From: Octopus vulgaris
Taxonomy: Eukaryota
DNA length: 64,000 nucleotides
Direction: 5' to 3'
Assembly: GCA_951406725.2 (NCBI GenBank)
Contig: OX597833.1
Location: 65,162,001 to 65,226,000, forward strand
Shown here one piece after another: positions 2,961 through 53,316 of this stretch. The position numbers and the translations under genes are program-made. Each line of letters starts with the position of its first letter. Within the stretch, counting starts at the first letter, position 1. The notes beneath the pieces were generated by a model, which worked only from the letters and a program-made list of their open reading frames with translations, was not told where the DNA came from and did no database searches.

Positions 2961-3884
2961 TAATGTTTGAGTTACGGTTTTTAGTTTCCATTTGTGTCAG
3001 GAGATTAGCTGGTAGCAGTATTGACTTTTAGAGAAATGACATTTTTGCCCGGAAATTAAATAAAAACATAGTATTTTTTAAAAAAATATTTTTCTTTCCT
3101 TCTTTATGTATGTTTTATTTGTTTTTTACTGCCAAGAAACACAGGGCAGACATATATGCCCACTGTTGTACATATGAACATAACACATGTATACATAATT
3201 CATATATTTAATGTGTGTATGTAGGTGTGTGTTCGTATGCATGTATTTATGTATATATGTGTATCTATACACTCACACACACAGCTGTAAAACATTGCTC
3301 ACTGTAGGAATAAAAGGATGAGCGACATATACACATATAGAAACAAGCATTAAGGTGTATATTGTCATTCTCGTACATTCTCGTATTTTTTTTTCAGCCG
3401 TTTATTGTGGACCATTGTTGAAACTTGTAATAAAATCTGTGGAACAACTATTTTGAGAAGTTTAATATTTCGAGCAGGAACTCTTTGTCGGAGAGAAATG
3501 AATCATCAACTTGTCAATCACCTTCTCTTCTTACAAATCTCCTTCCTTCCACTCTTGCTCTTTCCTTGCCTCATTCCCTGTCTTTATCTCTCTGCACCCT
3601 CTTTTTCTACTTTACGTTTCCTTCTGTTAGATCCATTCACAAGACTTAAGTCGGCCTGAGGCCAAGTAGAAGACGCCTGCCTATGGTTATCGTTCCACGC
3701 TGTGATATAGAATCTGGAACCGTGTCGTTGGAAACGAAACCTCTTACCACACGGCCAATACTGCGTAGACCGGTATAAGTTTATTCATTCAGATATTTGC
3801 CACGAAACGATTGTTGCGTTGAGGAAAAACGTTTGTAGGAAAAACGTAGGAAAAACGTTTGTAGAAGAACTCTAGGAAATGGAG

Positions 3885-4204
3885 TGAGGGCGCGTGGCTT
3901 AGTGGTTAGGGCATTCGGCTCATGATCGTAAGGTTGTGACTTCGATTCCCGGCGATGCGTTGTGTCCTTGAGCAAGACACTTTATTTCACGTTGCTCCAG
4001 TCCACTCAGCTGGCAAAAATGAGTTGTACTTGTATTTCAAAGGGTCAGCCTTGTCACTCTCTGTGTCACGCTGATTATCCCCGAGAACTACGTTAAGGGT
4101 ACACGTGTCTGTGGAATGCTCAGCCATTTGCACGTTAATTTCACGAGCAAGCTGTTCCGTTGATCGTATCAGCTGGGACCCTCGTCGTCGTAACCGGCGG
4201 AGTC
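3885..4204 (+). mobile_element. tRNA-headed SINE, head C + tail 1
   Basis: gggcgcgtggcttagtggttagggc..ttcgattccc head; ttgagcaagacactttatttcacgttgctccagt body; tail shared with 9690-9872. Confidence 0.88.
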
Positions 4205-4647
4205 TTTTTTTTAGGAAATGGAATGGCAACTAGCAAGATTGTCACGATTGGTTTTCGCCTGTAATATTATCGATGTATTAAACTACAAACGCCGAGGAAT
4301 ATTTGAAGAATCATATGCATAAAATTACAATAAAATTTTTTTTTTTTTTTTTTAAAGCTACAGAAACGAAGCCTGTAAGCATGAGTGTGGGAGATGAAGA
4401 GAGATCTGCTTACTACACAGTAATGGGAACTGATTAGAAATATGGAAAGGAAATAAAAAAAAAGTAAAATGAAACAACAACAAAAAAACTGCAGTCAATT
4501 TCCTGGAAATTATTTGAATTTAATAATATCTCATCTGAGAATCGACTTGTTTTCCTCATAATATGATTACTTTGTTCATTTTACACCAATAGATTAAATA
4601 TGCGCCACAGCTAACGCTGTTGTTGATTTTGATGCCTAATATTTATG

Positions 4648-4726
<79 letters not shown>

Positions 4727-4764
4727 CTATATATATACACATATATATATACATATATATATGT

Positions 4765-5215
4765 ATTTCTCCTCTCACGTGACCGCTGGCCAACCAGCCT
4801 TTCAGCTTCTGGCCGGCGCCGTGAGACCATCGTTGTCTTCGTCTGCCGAAAAAGGCATTTTTTTCCAAAATACGCCAGTTAAACTAAGTTGTACTGTCTA
4901 TTAGTCGTAAGACACCCGCTGTTTTTGTCCTGTAATTACTATTATTGTTTTTTTGTATTTTATATTCGTCTGGCATCGTCCGGTTTTCTGTCCCTGTTTC
5001 GTATATATTCGATCCTTTTTGCAAGAAATCGAATGCTCGTAGCTTAGTTTTTCCTTGGGGCTGGTCGGATCGGAGCGATCTCAAGATTAATCGGCCGAAA
5101 TTGCTAGGATGATCCGGTTCTTGACTGAAGATTGAAGGCTTCGAATGTCCCGTCCGTGTTTTTTGTATCGTCTTCTAAATGTTTTACGTTCTTGTCCCAG
5201 TTTGTATTTTTCTAC
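4765..5215 (+). mobile_element. Non-coding repeat in (TA)n, homologous to 23110-23560; Penelope-like terminal repeat suspected
   Basis: Shared blocks cacgtgacc, ttagtc..aagacaccc, aatc..tgctc, ggggctgg, ccgaaattgc, cccgtcc, ttgtatcgtct, ctaaatgtttt in the same order in both copies. Both are flanked by (TA)n. Confidence 0.7.
5059..5144 (+). ncRNA. Candidate non-circularly permuted hammerhead-like ribozyme, copy 1
   Basis: TC site 5079-5080, GAAA 5097-5100, CTGAAGA 5125-5131. Helices tcaaga/tcttga, agcgat/attgct, ggctggt/atcggcc. Confidence 0.5.
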
Positions 5216-5237
5216 ATATATATATATATATATATAT

Positions 5238-5298
<61 letters not shown>

Positions 5299-5299
5299 G

Positions 5300-5352
<53 letters not shown>

Positions 5353-6027
5353 TATATACATATATATATATTATATGCGTGTGTGTGTATGTTAATATAT
5401 AATATTCACGAGCAATTTTTATTCTTTTGCGCGCGTTTCATTAAAAGTAAACGTATGTCCTTTGTGTATGGAATCTTTATCAGTAGCCAATTTTACCGCC
5501 AAAATGTTTGACCCGTTAACGCTTGCGCATCAGCAGACTTTGCCGCATATTTTTGTCTTATTTTCAGGTTTCCTAAGCCATCACGTGTTATTTATTATAC
5601 ATATATATATATATTTCTTGTAGGCGTCTTCTGTTTGTTTATTTTGGCAATGTGATGCGATATCGATGACATAATGGAAAATGTTGTTGAGGAGCTTATA
5701 CATCATGGATGGAGCTGCTCCTTTTAGTAAATGCATGGGGAGCCTACGCGAGATTCTTGGTCCAGTATGGCTAATATAAAAGCTGGAGTCATCAAGTTTT
5801 AAACCGTCACTTCTATAATTGCGTTTCTAGAAAATACGTGTTACTTGGTGTTTTCTGTTGAATTTAGCAATTAGATATTCAGCGAATGTTATACGGAATA
5901 CACGCAACTGAAGGATTTTATATAAAACATTTCGAGAATTTCTGCTATTTGCACGATAGTTTGTAGACATTTTTCTTCCGTTAGTTGTGAAAATACTCTT
6001 ATACTTCAATAAATTATTACCAAAATA

Positions 6028-6499
<472 letters not shown>

Positions 6500-7146
6500 A
6501 TACATTTCTGATATCTTTAGCTTGATTGTCGAATTCTAAATCCGCTTAAAAGTTGTGGTTATTTCAACCAAAGAAAGAAAATATCTGACCCCCTTTCTTA
6601 TTCGGTCCCAATTAACCGATTATATTTGTCGTGATATTTTAATCATACACATTTTCATTAGGATATTGGATTTCATTTGATAATTTCATCAAATTCCACT
6701 GTAGTTTAGTGTTTATTGCTTGAGCTTACCTTCACTTATGCCTATATAGATATTCGTGTACCTATTCGAGATTTGTTTTGATCTGATTTTAGTGATTTCT
6801 CTTTCGTATACGATCACTTGAGCCTACATTAGTGATCGAAAGCACACGCATTGATATTCTCTATATGCTTTTAACTAACGCTGATTGGTGTGAGTAGATA
6901 CGTATTTGGTGTGCAACTGTAACTCTATTTAAAGTTATTCTCGTTGAATATTTAATTTATTTGTAGTTGATGGGAAACTGTTTATTGATTAAAGCCAAAA
7001 TGTTCATGGAGAAATTCGTCCTTACATTCAACGAGAAAGTGTCTAATAAACCGGCTAATATATATATATATACTTTATTGAAAAGCAGCAGAAAATTCAA
7101 CAAAACCTGTTACTGTGGATTCAGTATAGCATATATATATATATAT

Positions 7147-7420
7147 GAAAGCGCATGGCTCAGTGGTTAGAGCGTCGATCGTAATGTTGTGAGATCGATT
7201 CCTGAACCGGGCTGCGTGTTGTGTTCTTGAGCAAGACGCTATCTTTTGACGTCGCTCCAGTTCACTCATGTGTAGAAATAAGTTGCGACGTGACAGGTAC
7301 CGAGCTGTATCGGCCCCTTTGCCTTTCCCCCTGGATAACATCGGTGGCGTGGAGAGGAGCCGCTGGTATGCATGGACGACTGCTAATCTTCCATAAAAAC
7401 AACCCTGGTTTGTGCGTTCG
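7147..7420 (+). mobile_element. SINE head C + tail 3, diverged
   Basis: gcgcatggctcagtggttagagcg head and ttgagcaagac..gctccagttcactca body, then a different 3' part. Confidence 0.75.
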
Positions 7421-7484
7421 CCGGTGAGGCGACTTTCCTCCCAGACTTGTTCACCCGGAGGGGAACCTCATAGATACACCGATG

Positions 7485-7520
<36 letters not shown>

Positions 7521-7523
<3 letters not shown>

Positions 7524-7707
7524 AATTAAGGACTGAACACGAAAAGTGGACAGTCAACATGCTAGATATAGACGTCAAATCGTCATTCTCCACAAAAGAT
7601 TATGTTCTCATTTGATCTGAGAACATAATCTTTTGTGGAGAATGACGATTTGACGTCTATATCTAGCATGTTGACTGTCCACTTTTCGTGTTCAGTCCTT
7701 AATTGGT
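7521..7707. repeat. Perfect inverted repeat, 90-bp arms with 7-nt spacer
   Basis: 7521-7610 is the exact reverse complement of 7618-7707; spacer tttgatc. The island lies between (TA)n tracts. Confidence 0.95.
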
Positions 7708-7791
7708 ATATATAAATATTTTGATCTTCGGATTCTTTTTTAATATGCTAGACCACTGGTCTTAATTGATAAATATCAATTTCTACCCTTA

Positions 7792-7868
<77 letters not shown>

Positions 7869-8258
7869 GCACACGTAGTCAACTACGGCTTACACGGTGT
7901 TATTTTTTAAACATAACAGTATTTGCAGCATTACAAATGCTTTCATTGAATTTTTTCTGGAAGCTATTTGTGAATACAATAAGCGTATATAAATGTATAT
8001 GAATTTCTTTCATGAGATTTTTGGGATGTTTTCTAGTACACACGTAGTTAAAGTTAGGATGAGGTTTTCAAAATTAACAAGTGTTAATTGCGTAAATGAC
8101 GTTATTTCAAAGTAACTAAAGCATTACTATTGACCTATACAGGTATTACCAACACATAGATCAAAATATATTGTAGTTATATACTTTAGGTCTTAACGAC
8201 CCTTAGTTGAAACATGTTTCGTGATCAGCATAAGGTTATATATTTTAGTTAATCTATA

Positions 8259-42585: not shown

Positions 42586-42936
42586 ACGTTCTGGCAGATT
42601 CCAACGTGAATATGTGATCGCTGTTGTTTTCCATCATCGGAGAGCCACTCCATGGATGTAAGGCAAAGATGACCTCGGCAGAATTTGGACTCAGTACGTA
42701 AAACTGGACAAAAGCCACGCATATGTAATAATGCTACGGTTAATTGTCGATGAACATAATAGTAATATATTAGTACTGCAGAATCATTTTAACCGAGATG
42801 CTTCCGGTATACAATACCACCATTACAATATATTGGTTACAAATTTTGGCACAAAGCCAGCAGTCCTGAGTAAGGGGATGCGTTCTGTCCTTATTTGTCC
42901 TCTCTATGTTTAGCCCCTTGTGGGCAGTAACGAATA

Positions 42937-42985
<49 letters not shown>

Positions 42986-43046
42986 ATTATTATTAATATT
43001 ATTATTATTATTATTATTATTATCATTATTATCATTATTATTATTA

Positions 43047-43727
43047 AAATAACTCTAGAAGATGTGAAAAGAGCGAAGGAATTGTTAAGAAAGGATGGCA
43101 ATGGTATCTTCCTCAATACTCCACAAGAGGTGATTGAAAGCACCAACAAGCAAACAATAATTTACAAAGTTTTCGACAGAAAACTAAAAAGAATAACAAA
43201 TGCCACACCCCAACAGTTGGAGATAGCTCTAAAGCCCATTTGGGCCCAAAAGAGCTACGTAACCAAGGGGAAGCGTTTTGGAACCGTGGAGGTTCGCTTC
43301 CCAACAGAGGAGCTGGCAAGGGCGAACGCCATTTCGCCCTTGCAAACTGAGAATTTGTTACTAATTCCAACCCACCTCGGGCGAAGAGTTACAAAAATAA
43401 AAATCGACCTCGTCCCCCCTGAATTAAATATGTCATGGCTGGTGGCAGCTGTCCTCTATGATATAGAGGACACTACCACCATTCTAGATGTCAGGAGAGT
43501 GAGGGCGAAAAACTGGTTGGGGATGGGAGTGCTGCTTCTTGCGCAAATTCAGCAAGAGAATATAAGTAAAGTCCCTGATTTCGTAAGTTTGCCGGACGGC
43601 ACTAGGCTAAACGTTGCTGTGGAGGGGCGAAAGCCAAAATGCTTTCTCTGCAGCAGCGAAAGCCACTTAAAGAGGGACTGTCCCATTCACAAAAAGAGGA
43701 TGGAGGCTTTCAGCAAGAGGCAGCAGC

Positions 43728-43758
<31 letters not shown>

Positions 43759-44569
43759 CAAGCAACAACAACAGAAACAAAAAAAACAGCAAGAAACACC
43801 AAAGGCTGCCACACCACCAACACCATCACCAACACCAGCACCAAGACGAGCAACACCACCTCCAACAACAACAACCACCACCAAACCAACACCGACAACC
43901 ACCACCAAACCAACACCGACACCAGTACCTCGAAGGTCGACAGCAGCGACATCAACAGTAACAGGAGCAGCGGCACCACCGATACCGGTGGAACCAGAAA
44001 CTTTTCGTCCTGCTACTGAAGCAGACCCCTCAACCATTCCTTTGCCGGATGAAGAGATCTCGGATTGTGCGAGCTCTGATTCCAACAAAGGAGAATGGAG
44101 TATAGTGCCTCCAAAGAAGAAAAGGAGGAAGAAACAAAAAGATTTACAGGGGAAGCACGAACAAATAGTGCTTCCCAACATCAACAACAACAACAACAAC
44201 AACAACACACACTCACAACAACAAACAACAACAACACTTTCGACACCACTACTGCCACTGCCACACACACAAACACACACAGACACAATTACATCAATAA
44301 ACACAAAGAACCAAAAACTAGTGGAGTACTTAAAAAACAAAACTAGTACAAATATAACCGATTTCATCATACCAACACAAAACACACCACCAGCACACAT
44401 TCTCACAATAAAAATAAATGCAAAATCATATGATGAAATCAAACAAATATTCCCTAACGATGTGGGATCGCTAGGGAAAAGTTTCTCGAAGAAACTTTAT
44501 AAAAACATTGTGGAAGCACCCGTGCAAAAGCACAAGGGAGCCACCCCCACCACCAACAACAGTAAGTAG
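43047..44569 (+). CDS. ORF1 nucleic-acid-binding (gag-like) protein, probably 5'-truncated
   Basis: Open frame with RRM-like region (GTVEVRFPTEELA), zinc knuckle CFLCSSESHLKRDC (CX2CX4HX4C), Q/T/P-rich linker and basic PPKKKRRKKQK. No ATG at the 5' junction; the track's poly-Ile N-terminus is read-through of flanking (ATT)n. Confidence 0.85.
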
Positions 44570-44608
44570 AGCTTTTTTTTCTCCTTTTTTTTTCCCCTAC
44601 TTTGAGAC

Positions 44609-47600
44609 ATGGCAAATCTTAGAATCGGTTGCTTGAATGTGAGAGGCCTCGGGTCACCTTGGAAACAGGGTCACCTGTTAAACGACCTGAGGTTTCATGA
44701 TGTGGATGTAGCAGCCATCAGTGAAACCAGACTCTCCGATCCGCAGGAACTCGCAGCCCTTTTCGGCGGATACGAGATATTTCTATCTCCGTGTCGGCCG
44801 GGAGCGGGCGGTGGTGGTACTGCGGTGTTGTTTCGGAAGGGCCTGGACCTGAAAATAAGGACAGTCTTCTTGGATCCGGAAGGTAAGTTGGTGGTCCTCG
44901 ACGTCGACGGTAGTGACGGCGGTGCTTTCAGACTGCTGGCTGCCTACGCTCCGACAGGAGCAGGGCAGTCGGATTATTTCAAACGTCTGGAAGTTTTCCT
45001 GGGAACGTCACGCACTCTAGTACTAGTTGGGGATTGGAACGCTGTCTTAGACGAACGTTTCGATCGGGTGGGCAGGGGAGCGTCTGTTAGGAGAGGGGGA
45101 GGGTGCAAGAGCCTCGCCAACCTACTCGGCCGCTTTCAGCTGTCCGACAGGTTTCGACTAGACAACCCGAATGTGCCAATGTGGACTTGGACAAACCGCA
45201 TCGGGTCGTCTAGATCGTACTTAGATAGAGTGTTTTGTAGGCCAGCGGATAAGGACAGCGTAGGGTGTCCACAATTCCACCTAGTCGAATATACGGACCA
45301 CAAATTAGTGATCTGTACGGTCGACTTAGATAGGCTACATAGACAGGGACCCGGCTACTGGAAGCTGAACGCGTCGTTAACGGCGTGCAAAGCTTACAGA
45401 GACCGGATTAGTTTACTAGTTAAGCGGGCGCTCACGGGGGCAATCATCAACAACAACTGGTGGTTTGCCCTCAAGAGAGCAATTAGAGTAGAGTCGATTA
45501 GGTATAGTAAGACTCTAGCTATTGAACGTAGGAAGAGAGAGCGGGATTTAGTTAAGAAACTAGACGAGGCTCTTGACACTGGCATCGCGACCGACGTGTT
45601 GGCGGCAAGGTTGGCCCTCGACCAACACTTCGACGCCAAACACGAAGGCTGCGTTGTCAGAGCTAAGGCACGTTCGCTAAGCGGGGAGGGGACTAGAGCC
45701 GCTCGATGGGCCCGCGTGGCGGAGGCGAAGCGAGGCAACAGAGCAACCATTCGGTCTTTGGTGGACCAGAACGGGCGCGAGGTTACCCAACCGAAGCAGA
45801 TGTGTACGGTGCTTCAGCGGCACTTTGCTCAACTGTTTGGGACGAGCGGTGGAACGGACACCAACGGTACAGACTTCGGTGTGTACCTGGACGGACTGCC
45901 GCAACTCTCGGACAGCGAGGCAGAGTGCTGCGAAGGACCGATATCTGCCTGGGAAGTACAGGAAGCGATGAAGAGTTGCACGAGAGGTAGATCGCCGGGT
46001 TTGGATGGTCTGCCCTACGAGCTTTACTTTTCAATGCCAGACTTGTTTGCGGACCTGTTGGCAAACGTCTACTGCAACTGGCAGCAAAACTGGAGAATTC
46101 CTGCTTTTGTCTGTCGAGGGGTGGTGGCTTTGCTAAAGAAGGACCCAAACAAGGGGGACGTTATAGGGAATTTCCGGCCCATCACTCTGCTCAATGCAGA
46201 GTTGAAGATTTTGGCCAAGGTGCTAGCCAAGAGATTGGCGCTTGTCGTGGACAAGCTGGTCGGCGGGACGCAGACATGCGCCGTGCCGACCAGGTCGATA
46301 CACGACAACCTCCATCTCATGCGCTACATCATAGAGAGGGTGGGTAACGACGCTGGCGCGGGTGGGGCTTTGATCAACTTGGATCAGAGTAAAGCCTTCG
46401 ATAGGGTCGACCATCAGTACCTGGCAGCTGTCCTCAAGGCAGCCGGCTTCGGTCCAGTCTTCCGCGGGTGGATCGCTGCTTTATACAGCAACATCTGCTC
46501 GGTGATACGGGTGAACGGTCACCTTTCGGAACCGTTCGACATCTCGCGTTCGGTCCGCCAAGGATGCCCTCTCTCCTCCCTCTTGTACATTTTGACTCTC
46601 GAGCCATTACTGCGCAAGTTGGAGGCTTTGAGGGGCATCCCGCGCGATCTAGGAGGCGGAAACAGCGTGTCTGCTTATGCCGACGACGTCACCGTGGTGG
46701 TGTCGAGCCACAGGCACATTAGCCTGATTGGCGAGACGCTAAACCAGTACGAAGCGGTGACAGGGGCAAAGATTAACGCGGAAAAGTCTGTGGGCTTGCA
46801 ACTGGGCACCTGGAGAGGCAAGCCCATGCCGTCCAACAGCGTCGTAGGGCGCTGGACAGACGGACCCGTTAAACTGCTCGGGGTCTGGTTCGGTCCGGAC
46901 CTCCAGGTGGATAAGAACTGGGAAGAGGTGACGAGCAGAGTGGCACGTCTCACCCAGAAATGGGCCGAGAGGAAGCTGTCCCTGAAAGGTCGAGCGGAGG
47001 TGGCGAATGCGTACATCGCATCCGTCATCTATTACCGCTTGACCGTCGTCCCTTGTCCCAACCGCTGGTTGGCCAAGCTGGTACGTCTGCTCTTCGACTT
47101 TTTGTGGAAGGGTCAGGTGCCACTGGTCAGGCGATCCATCTGCTGTCAACGACCGCTGAACGGAGGCCTTGGAATGCCGTGGTTGCTGTTGCGCAGACAT
47201 GCGCTCAGGCTGCGGCATCTCAAGCGCTTCCTAGACGGTGAACAGGTGTGGTCGTCTTTTGTCAGACGCGATTTTCCGCAGCTCGTCTCTTTGACGGAGC
47301 TGCAGACCTGGATCAAACGTAGACCGAGAAAGGGCGCTTGGCACCTCGAGTGCCGTCAAGCCCTCTCCGCCCTCCACCAGGCGGGCAATGCGGTCGGTTA
47401 CAGCTCCACTCTAGCGTTCTATAGAGGGTTAGTGGAGGAAAAATGCGACGACGTTCTCGGGGAAACTCTAGGCGTTGAAGACGACGAACTGAGCAGTCTG
47501 TTCGGGAGGACTTTCGGGCCGGGGCCGATGGATAATTTCCAGAGGTCTCTCGCCTGGCAGTGCTACCGAGGGGCTCTGCCTGTTCGAGATAAACTCTACC

Positions 47601-48043
47601 GGCACGGAAGTGCCGTCAGCCGGGCCTGCCCGAGGTGTTGCCAGGACGACGAAACCGTTCTGCACGCACTCGTCCAGTGCCCGAGTATTGCTGAAATATG
47701 GGTTTATGTCGAACAGCTACTGTCACGTGTAGGACGGATCCGACTATCGGCCGAATCCATAGTGAAGATTGCCCCGCCGACCTCCTTTAACAAGGAGGGC
47801 GAGGCCGTTTTCTTGTGCCTAGTGGCTGTGGCGAAAGAGGTCGTGTGGTGGACTCGTTTAAAAGGGCTAAAGACAGACACTTTCCTCTTTGGTCAAGGCC
47901 TCATCAACTTTTTCAAGTTTCACTTGAAAAGGAAGATGAGGTTAGAGAGGAAAGTGCTGTCCGATAGCAAGTTTTATGAAAGGTGGGTGAATTGTGCGAG
48001 ACTGGCCTGTATAAATGGACCAGTTCTCAGGTTTCGCCTGTGA
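44609..48043 (+). CDS. ORF2 polyprotein: apurinic-like endonuclease, reverse transcriptase, C-terminal CCHC finger (1144 aa, uninterrupted)
   Basis: APE motifs CLNVRGL, ISETRL, YAP, VGDWNAV, YLDRVF, TDHKLV. RT motifs WKLN, SPGLDGLP, FRPITLLN, LDQSKAFDRVDH, VRQGCPLS, YADD, LLGV. C-terminal CPRC-x8-H-x4-C. Confidence 0.96.
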   Translation: MANLRIGCLNVRGLGSPWKQGHLLNDLRFHDVDVAAISETRLSDPQELAALFGGYEIFLSPCRPGAGGGGTAVLFRKGLDLKIRTVFLDPEGKLVVLDVDGSDGGAFRLLAAYAPTGAGQSDYFKRLEVFLGTSRTLVLVGDWNAVLDERFDRVGRGASVRRGGGCKSLANLLGRFQLSDRFRLDNPNVPMWTWTNRIGSSRSYLDRVFCRPADKDSVGCPQFHLVEYTDHKLVICTVDLDRLHRQGPGYWKLNASLTACKAYRDRISLLVKRALTGAIINNNWWFALKRAIRVESIRYSKTLAIERRKRERDLVKKLDEALDTGIATDVLAARLALDQHFDAKHEGCVVRAKARSLSGEGTRAARWARVAEAKRGNRATIRSLVDQNGREVTQPKQMCTVLQRHFAQLFGTSGGTDTNGTDFGVYLDGLPQLSDSEAECCEGPISAWEVQEAMKSCTRGRSPGLDGLPYELYFSMPDLFADLLANVYCNWQQNWRIPAFVCRGVVALLKKDPNKGDVIGNFRPITLLNAELKILAKVLAKRLALVVDKLVGGTQTCAVPTRSIHDNLHLMRYIIERVGNDAGAGGALINLDQSKAFDRVDHQYLAAVLKAAGFGPVFRGWIAALYSNICSVIRVNGHLSEPFDISRSVRQGCPLSSLLYILTLEPLLRKLEALRGIPRDLGGGNSVSAYADDVTVVVSSHRHISLIGETLNQYEAVTGAKINAEKSVGLQLGTWRGKPMPSNSVVGRWTDGPVKLLGVWFGPDLQVDKNWEEVTSRVARLTQKWAERKLSLKGRAEVANAYIASVIYYRLTVVPCPNRWLAKLVRLLFDFLWKGQVPLVRRSICCQRPLNGGLGMPWLLLRRHALRLRHLKRFLDGEQVWSSFVRRDFPQLVSLTELQTWIKRRPRKGAWHLECRQALSALHQAGNAVGYSSTLAFYRGLVEEKCDDVLGETLGVEDDELSSLFGRTFGPGPMDNFQRSLAWQCYRGALPVRDKLYRHGSAVSRACPRCCQDDETVLHALVQCPSIAEIWVYVEQLLSRVGRIRLSAESIVKIAPPTSFNKEGEAVFLCLVAVAKEVVWWTRLKGLKTDTFLFGQGLINFFKFHLKRKMRLERKVLSDSKFYERWVNCARLACINGPVLRFRL

Positions 48044-51950: not shown

Positions 51951-52617
51951 CGCTTGCATGCATATATGTATTGCGTAATTTTTGCTTGATTTTTGTATTT
52001 CGAAATGTATACAAATATAGATGTGTGTACACACGCATACACACACACACACCAATATACACAAACGCATAAATGCATACATATTGTATGTAGGTGTTGT
52101 TTTCTCTAAGTGGTGAATCACTTAAAAATGTAAATATCAAATTGTTATACAAGTACCATTGAACAACGATAAATACGTATACGTCTTGAAATTTGTTTTT
52201 TTGTTTTTTTGTTTTGCAACCTTATCAGTATCAATTTATCTCTTTGTAGATGATTTTGATTTTCAATAAGTAATTCGAAATAATAGAAGACGTTTTCCTT
52301 GAATATTCTGAATCTTGGAATTTAGAATGGCGTTCGTATTTCTAAAAGAAATAGAACAGTTTTGTAAAAGAGTGTTTGAGGTAATACGCCATCTTGTTCC
52401 CCTCCCCCAGTTTAACCACCTACTGACTTTAATGGAGTTCATTCGAGTACAAGTCTTCGGTTCCTAGTTTCGGTTTCATATCTGCCATCGTACTTTCAAC
52501 TAATGTCTGTCTTACAGCAAAGGGGTTCTGGGCCCTGTTAAGTGCATTTCCTTCTCTGCCAGTCATAAAAATATAGAAGGTTTTTGTTCTCAAATCCGTC
52601 CATCCATTTTCCCCCTC

Positions 52618-53316
52618 TCCACTATTCTTGTTAAGTCGTGGGAGTACAGTTATAAGCTACCTCCGAGTGTCAGCAACTGAGATTATGGATATGATCCAAC
52701 AACCTTGTTACTTACTTACTTGTACTCGTTCTCGTGGCGACATTCACCCTGGGCGGGTTGAGTCGCCTTCTTCTACCACCCTCGATGCATCTCGAACCAT
52801 GGCGGCCCACGCACGACGGTCCTGCGCCAGTTCACTGGAGATAGCGAGCCAGTCATGGTTCCATCGAAACCGTGGAACCGTGATGGAACTTTGTTCTTGG
52901 AACCCTAGCTCTTCTGCATATTACGCTTAGCTTGAAGAACAAACTTGCGATTCTTTCCTGCCACTATCTGTTCCTCGCCACTATCCTTGTTAGGCCGTGG
53001 GAGTACAGTTCTCAGGTACCTCCGAGTGTCAGCAACTGAGATTATGGATATGATCCTACAACCTTGTTACTTACTTGTACTCGTACTCGTGGCGACATTC
53101 ACCCTGGGAGGGTTGAGTCGGCTTCTTCTACCACCCTCGATGCATCTCGAACCATGGCAGGCCACGCACGACGGTCCTGCGCCAGTTCACTGGAGATAGA
53201 GAGCCAGTCACTGTTCCATCGGAACCGTGGAACCGTGATTGAACCTTGTTTTGGGAACCCTAGGTCTTCTGCATGTTATGCTTAGCTTGAAGAACAATTT
53301 TGCAATTCTTTCCTGC
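52618..53316. repeat. Tandem duplication (period about 355-359 bp), each unit containing a minus-strand RTE-like 3' fragment
   Basis: ctccgagtgtcagcaactgag at 52661 and 53020. Minus-strand peptide WNHDWLAISSELAQDRRAWAAMVRDA..STRPG-stop followed by a caagtaagta tail. Confidence 0.88.

Follow-up and report, generated by a model that had tools for sequence, protein, structure and literature searches.

A likely self-cleaving hammerhead motif with a predicted split core near the 3′ end of a (TA)n-targeting octopus repeat

The (TA)n-inserted repeat and its copies

The window, meaning the entire 64,000-nt stretch of Octopus vulgaris DNA under analysis (contig OX597833.1, positions 65,162,001 to 65,226,000), contains a 5′-truncated copy of a non-coding repeat at 4768..5215 on the plus strand. 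The copy stops at the fixed 3′ end of its family, is 90.9% identical over 450 nt to a tandem array unit, and is bounded by the (TA)n target repeat on its 5′ (4652..4766) and 3′ (5216..5376) flanks. tRNA-like SINE copies are located at 3885-4200 and 6028-6500, with a weak tRNA match at 3888-3950, and we take them to resemble the octopus OR/OK SINEs. The window also contains a near-perfect inverted repeat with ~38 bp per arm (7573-7655), a tandem duplication with a 355-bp period and 91% matches (52614-53316), and an apparently intact non-LTR retrotransposon on the plus strand (42914-48043) with a 551-aa frame followed by a 1145-aa frame that encodes APE endonuclease, RT and zf-RVT domains.

Genomic copies of the repeat have a common fixed 3′ end and variable 5′ ends. 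A 21-nt pattern from the 3′ part of the repeat has 6,323 matches in the genome, and the patterns for family D and family E/F have 815 and 768 matches, respectively; these are pattern counts and not full copy numbers. Tandem arrays are built from units of 832 nt (family A), 709 nt (B) and 843 nt (D) with one hammerhead each, and the longest sense-strand ATG ORF is 38 aa in A and 91 aa in B. Where arrays of one family occur at separate loci, their units meet at the same junction, which is not a plain (TA)n run; this indicates that the unit is continuous and that the insertion ends are internal to it. Internal insertion ends are likewise reported for a Penelope-like element (PLE) in vitro (PMC11167929).

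A tblastn search with the Naiad GIY-YIG/RT ORF gave no match in the window or at the A, B, D and E loci, and no autonomous element with an A-type end was found among 65 Naiad-type or 8 intact-ORF loci. The search likewise yielded no autonomous partner for families B, D and E. A-like copies at L155 and L174 proved to be separate insertions. A young (TA)n-targeting PLE with an intact 784-aa ORF, RT with a C-terminal GIY-YIG, is present at L249-L256 (e.g. G000:C1:26209000-26216300) and is presumably of the Neptune type. The hammerhead at its 3′ end is a minimal type I with a palindromic stem III and a U3-A8 variant of the core. This element was rejected as a sequence-related partner of the repeat: it has its own hammerhead and no sequence match to the repeat. 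The (TA)n target is common to the two, and the element could act on the repeat in trans. At L041, L076 and L174, insertions of the element stand back to back in inverted orientation and are broken within the ribozyme, an arrangement described for PLEs, and another repeat at L147 has a canonical-order hammerhead-like core near position 7439 (+).

Strand order and helices of the motif

The hammerhead core boxes CUGANGA, GAAA and NUH are present in the window copy, and all of the pieces that a first-pass annotation of this DNA had listed are found where it placed them. U16.1 is at 5079, C17 at 5080, GAAA at 5097-5100 and CUGAAGA at 5125-5131. Stems I to III abut the core, stem I pairing 5081-5086 with 5119-5124, and the G10.1-C11.1 and A15.1-U16.1 pairs are in place. 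Read 5′ to 3′ on the plus strand, the chain passes through the 5′ strand of stem IV (5006..5020), hairpin V (5021..5058), the 5′ strands of stem II (5059..5064) and helix X (5065..5071), the non-bulged strand of a probable kink-turn (5072..5074), the 5′ strand of stem III with U16.1 and C17 (5075..5080), and the 5′ strand of stem I (5081..5086). The predicted cut follows AUC, between 5080 and 5081. A short linker from stem I to stem II (5087..5090), as in type SGC where it is typically 3 nt (PMC10085705), leads into the 3′ strand of stem II with C11.1 at 5096 and GAAA (5091..5100), the 3′ strand of stem III (5101-5104), a bulge (5105-5107), the GA of the kink-turn (5108-5109, in a feature that extends to 5110), the 3′ strand of helix X (5111..5117), the 3′ strand of stem I with CUGAAGA (5119..5131), and the 3′ strand of stem IV directly after A9 (5132..5147).

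The block order is S-G-C in the naming of Eckert 2023 (PMC10085705). The circular order C, G, S without pseudoknots that unites types I, II and III is not found here. The Eckert scheme treats CUGAnGA and its stem II strand as inseparable, which leaves six possible orders, and the upstream stem II partner of the octopus motif is outside all six. The core is predicted to be opened between A9 and G10.1, because the 5′ strand of stem II (G10.1 = 5059) is detached from CUGAAGA and located upstream of the cut site. After A9 the chain runs into stem IV, which closes with its partner at 5006-5020 (5006-5011 with 5142-5147; 5014-5018 with 5134-5138), and hairpin V stops immediately before G10.1. We consider it quite probable from the sequence that the window holds a slightly decayed copy of a likely self-cleaving, non-circular hammerhead, with two extra helices predicted to rejoin a core opened at A9/G10.1. 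The repeat that carries it near its 3′ end is non-coding, targets (TA)n and is likely a non-autonomous Penelope-type element.

Helix X has 7 bp, bridges stems I and II, and places its 3′ strand just before the 3′ strand of stem I. It is the counterpart of the I-II interaction helix of type SGC/CSG (PMC10085705), and by analogy with the three-dimensional role described there it would fill the stem I-II tertiary contact. Stem III passes into helix X through a 3-nt bulge and tandem GA pairs. In the consensus kink-turn, two helices are separated by a 3-nt bulge and then tandem G-A/A-G pairs, and the junction is a probable kink-turn. These features are present in A, A2, B, L155, C and E and absent in family D. 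Two of the bulge positions, 5105 and 5107, are variable, and the four key letters are kept in 29-30 of the 31 aligned rows (G5073 and G5108 in 30/31; A5074 and A5109 in 29/31).

The reading of stem IV with hairpin V was derived from coral and ostracod Naiad 3′ ends. The joined flanks were folded for 13 representatives. Young A, A2 and D copies gave z scores of -3.1 to -5.6 and one B copy gave -2.3; the flanks of the window copy (z 0.2), L058 and five family C copies did not fold better than shuffles. A shorter first version of stem IV (5053-5058 with 5132-5138) was dropped, its 30-nt flank duplex being not above shuffles in 7/7 cases, and was abandoned because the longer fold accounts for both strands. 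The window copy deviates from its family at 5006, 5021, 5031, 5065 and 5093 and keeps the core; G5021 and G5031 weaken its hairpin V. It is probably a dead insertion whose outer helices have decayed. AUC is a rare cleavage triplet in natural hammerheads, yet it cleaves well after transcription (PMC1636495).

These assignments revise several details of the first-pass annotation. Its pairing of stem II with the upstream strand stands at 6 bp (5059-5064 with 5091-5096) instead of the length it gave, and T5065, which it had included in stem II, begins helix X (5065-5071 with 5111-5117). Its "mini-hairpin ggatgatcc" is better described as the GA of the kink-turn plus the 3′ strand of helix X, and the A5074-T5105 pair it had assigned to stem III is not conserved, being paired in 8/26 rows. 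The hammerhead itself holds within limits that widen to ~5006-5147 with stem IV and hairpin V. The motif is near the end of the repeat as proposed, with the predicted cut 135 nt and not ~100 nt from the fixed 3′ end (5215). Its statement that non-circular hammerhead permutations have been published is correct (PMC10085705).

The same strands also allow an ordinary type SGC hammerhead in which the upstream strand is incidental and stem II forms from 5137-5140, beyond a 5-nt insert. The S-G-C order and the short I-to-II linker fit this arrangement, and 5137-5140 can form 4 bp with 5093-5096 in A and, with a wobble, in D. The downstream pairing is nevertheless lost in E/F (768 matches) and in family C, positions 5132-5139 are variable (8 variant rows, up to ~25%), and the upstream strand keeps 5-6 bp in 9/9 representatives and covaries between A and C. 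These comparisons make an ordinary type SGC fold very improbable. The split motif would work like type SGC and is not a member of it, since there is no conserved stem II partner after A9.

Conservation, covariation and truncation points

Thirty-one full-length copies of A, A2, B and E/F were chosen by hand for alignment from the window, 100 position-ordered A/B matches and 30 E/F loci, with truncated and many near-identical copies omitted. G10.1, U16.1, A13, A14 and A15.1 are found in 31/31 rows and G12 in 29/31. Position 17 is C in 26 rows, A in four and U in one, and never G. N7 of CUGANGA varies among A, G and T with the fixed positions stable; the search patterns had pre-fixed this box in the 31 rows, and unselected support for its constancy comes from contigs of three organisms. 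In these contigs the fixed CUGA, GA, AAA, U16.1 and G10.1 have no variant at or above 1%, N7 and position 17 vary, the CpG at 5096-5097 varies by ~1-3%, and 5132-5139 carry the 8 variant rows noted above.

Across 46 pairs and 31 rows, 92.9% of cells are paired versus at most 49% when the strands are slid. Cells with a change on both sides number 56 compared to 22.1 ± 4.7 in shuffles. They fall in eight pairs, four of six in stem I, two of seven in helix X, where L155 adds more changes, and two of seven in the inner part of stem IV. This count of pairs is not above shuffles (244 of 500). No both-side change was found in stems II, III, V or outer IV in the 31-row alignment, and hairpin V has 94-98% of its cells paired. 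The rows are related, so there are few independent covariation events. A smaller alignment of 26 A/B rows has four pairs with both-side change. Comparison of family C with A/A2, in an alignment fitted to the structure, reveals both-side change in 6/6 pairs of stem I, 4/6 of stem II and 4/4 of stem III with identical core letters except at N7 and position 17; in family D, one stem III C-G is changed to U-A. The covariation proposed as a check on the fold is found for stem I, and also for the bridging helix X, among subfamilies and for stems I-III against family C, and not for stems II and III within the 31 copies.

Covariation across families bears directly on whether short boxes have simply co-occurred by chance and been spread by transposition. 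Such motifs are common, no hammerhead match at E ≤ 10 was returned by Rfam for window positions 3000-8000, and nested MFE folding of 5050-5160 was not better than shuffles (z 0.82); neither method can represent a pseudoknotted fold, and nested folding is uninformative for one. A descriptor of the exact topology, designed only after the motif had been seen, has a single match in the window (5059-5131) and 0 matches in 300 dinucleotide shuffles on both strands, and the same layout is recognized by eye in the Naiad 3′ ends read from other phyla. Chance co-occurrence is largely refuted already by the covariation and retains an almost negligible probability.

Truncated copies have their 5′ ends concentrated at the predicted cut. 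Of 100 copies taken in order of position, 30 end in the 45-nt interval that separates CUGAAGA from the cut, and seven in the next 45 nt; 10 ends are in the last 8 nt before the cut versus two in the 18 nt beyond it. Genome-wide, 474 TA-joined 5′ ends were counted from +6 to -24 of the cut using minus-strand matches, in which each locus is listed once. C17 is kept in only 90 of the 474, which places 384 ends in 7 nt versus 90 in 24 nt (~55 versus 4 per nt). In 100 copies the junction with (TA)n coincides with the cut, subject to a one-letter ambiguity, and an exact join at the cut is found in family C as well (L128). Microhomology could raise the TA-joined counts, since the sequence immediately 3′ of the cut is AT-rich. 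This distribution suggests that the pile-up reflects cleavage in vivo.

A conserved structured signal, for example for RT binding, that derives from a former hammerhead and no longer cuts could also occupy this position, with the step in 5′ ends produced by RT stalling or TA microhomology. Consistent with such a signal, 20 of the 100 copies have their ends within the helices, 1-37 nt upstream of CUGAAGA, AT-rich sequence flanks the cut, and cleavage is dispensable for PLE insertion in vitro (PMC11167929). Stalling, however, would favour the 3′ strands of helices, whereas ends are densest along the 5′ strand of stem I and break off at the predicted bond, an edge that stalling of the RT alone would not create. 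The core, moreover, varies only at N7 and position 17, and only to letters that functional hammerheads allow. A relic that has lost cleavage is unlikely. Type SGC hammerheads cleave at 0.007-0.19 per min (PMC10085705).

Contig depth was considered as expression evidence and rejected. Four presumed-RNA sets are deeper 3′ of the cut; the pattern is no evidence either way because depth in DNA contigs increases towards the same side and ends are not visible in contigs. In the presumed-RNA contigs of X13, a variant with N7 G and 5133 A is ~100-fold deeper over 5080-5143 than the stretch upstream of the cut, a depth taken from contigs, which cannot show level or ends.

An active motif would best fit a retrozyme-like cycle. 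Transcripts of tandem arrays would cut themselves at AUC^ to release unit-length RNAs (709-843 nt), some perhaps to be circularised. Nicking of (TA)n by a Penelope-type RT/GIY-YIG enzyme would set off copying at a point within the RNA that lies 135 nt downstream of the cut; internal priming of this kind was shown in vitro for an Anolis element (PMC11167929). On cut linear RNA the RT would run off at or just before the cut and leave short copies, and on uncut or circular RNA it would read through to give long copies and arrays.

Cleavage may depend on two units. The first-pass annotation had allowed a pseudoknotted or a dimer-acting RNA; no finding requires the dimer, and folding as a monomer is favoured as the fairly likely arrangement. 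The same ribozyme might instead be active only as a dimer or with an element protein, its core assembled from two units or molecules. Tandem arrays are common, dimers are the only form in which minimal PLE hammerheads cleave (PMC4209133), the hammerhead of the Anolis PLE depends on protein (PMC11167929), and a dimer would ease the tight geometry of helix X. Two points from PMC10085705 bear against the split hammerhead as such: according to that paper, CUGAnGA is separated from its stems by at most 1-2 nt in all known hammerhead alignments, and in the crystal structure stem III and the I-II helix have tips that are far apart, whereas the octopus motif ties both tips on both strands and family D does so without the bending kink-turn. 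Set against a dimer, each helix finds a 4-7 bp partner within one 145-nt stretch, stem III is not palindromic, and the published Naiad consensi marked "no pLTR" have one copy (PMC8557442). Dependence on a dimer or protein is possible and distinctly less probable than the monomeric fold.

Naiad elements and other hammerhead systems

Naiads are PLEs that target (TA)n and form tandem and inverted insertions (Craig et al. 2021, PMC8557442). The 3′ end of Naiad_Ovul and Naiad_Obim is matched by family C, which has 228 exact pattern matches in the genome and the same split strand order as the window motif. At 8/30 loci, Naiad-type RT remnants precede family C on the same strand by 0.8-1.5 kb, and the Naiad-type RT and EN matches that carry family C are decayed. 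The (TA)n target, the position of the 3′ motif and the occurrence of tandem and inverted insertions are common to Naiads and the window element. They differ in that a Naiad has a GIY-YIG and RT ORF with the GIY-YIG N-terminal, of which family C retains only remnants, and the window element is non-coding. The fold is shared between the window element and family C and the flanking sequence is not. The first-pass observation is confirmed as real. Its interpretation, a Penelope-type repeat inserted in (TA)n with a non-circularly permuted hammerhead near its 3′ end, draws support from the covariation, from the concentration of truncated copies at the predicted cut, and from the occurrence of this fold downstream of Naiad-type RT remnants.

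The published SGC/CSG hammerheads (HRIMA-1 and variants, PMC10085705) have in common with the octopus motif the cyclic order S-G-C, the short I-to-II linker, all core nucleotides, and a helix that joins the far ends of stems I and II, as helix X does here. Block C is intact in those ribozymes and broken in the octopus motif, where stem IV follows A9 and hairpin V precedes G10.1. In contrast to SGC/CSG, both strands of the octopus helix X connect to stem III, mostly via the probable kink-turn. The published examples come from metatranscriptomes, metagenomes and one bacterial candidate, and the present motif resides in animal genomic retroelements. Animal non-LTR retrozymes, proposed to derive from PLEs, are likewise non-coding units of <1 kb with one hammerhead each (bioRxiv 10.64898/2026.07.22.740005; PMC4209133). 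They carry type I hammerheads, whereas the octopus repeat carries the permuted form, which descriptors for canonical or minimal type I would miss. The Anolis Poseidon element is alike in that RT starts inside the RNA downstream of the cut and in its fixed ends in AT-rich targets (PMC11167929). Its hammerhead is canonical in order, in contrast to the permuted octopus motif, and protein-assisted; it is reported to need protein, to be dispensable for insertion in vitro, and to have no RNA-seq ends at the site.

Canonical hammerheads were reported absent from Naiads, with only "cores" and eight "half cores" (PMC8557442). The 3′ ends of 26 of the 54 Naiad consensi were read by eye (last 400-600 nt; names from file order). 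The split form was recognized in seven (Obim, Ovul, 4_Dst, Amil, Anas, 3_Chem and 2_Movir), which span octopus, coral, jellyfish, hydrozoan and ostracod and form IV and V in other letters, and weakly in two more (Bfor and Esco). An intact type CSG was read in Smim, 3_Nbra and Hpol, and a type SGC with a U3-A8 core in Sdum. Nothing could be parsed by eye in 13/26.

A literature search that reached few subscription journals returned no split-core hammerhead and no permuted hammerheads in Naiads or octopus. The balance leans modestly towards a broader reading: the motif would be a seventh natural hammerhead wiring, with its core opened at A9/G10.1 on a multi-helix junction and cleavage as a monomer in vivo, and together with the intact CSG and SGC forms it would be the unrecognised ribozyme of many Naiads across cnidarians, molluscs, arthropods and nematodes; in octopus, its retrozyme-like derivatives would number in the thousands. 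If so, the assumption that limits hammerheads to six strand orders would be broken, and non-circular permutations, so far known from environmental sequence and one bacterial candidate, would be present in thousands of copies in animal genomes. Naiads would then have been reported to lack hammerheads because of a descriptor blind spot, and the truncation step would be a genomic record of in vivo cleavage that bears on the role of the hammerhead in Penelope-like transposition.

A different conserved 3′ motif is common to Naiad-1_Chem, Naiad-2_Chem and Naiad_CGi; it does not parse as a hammerhead and is possibly another structured RNA.
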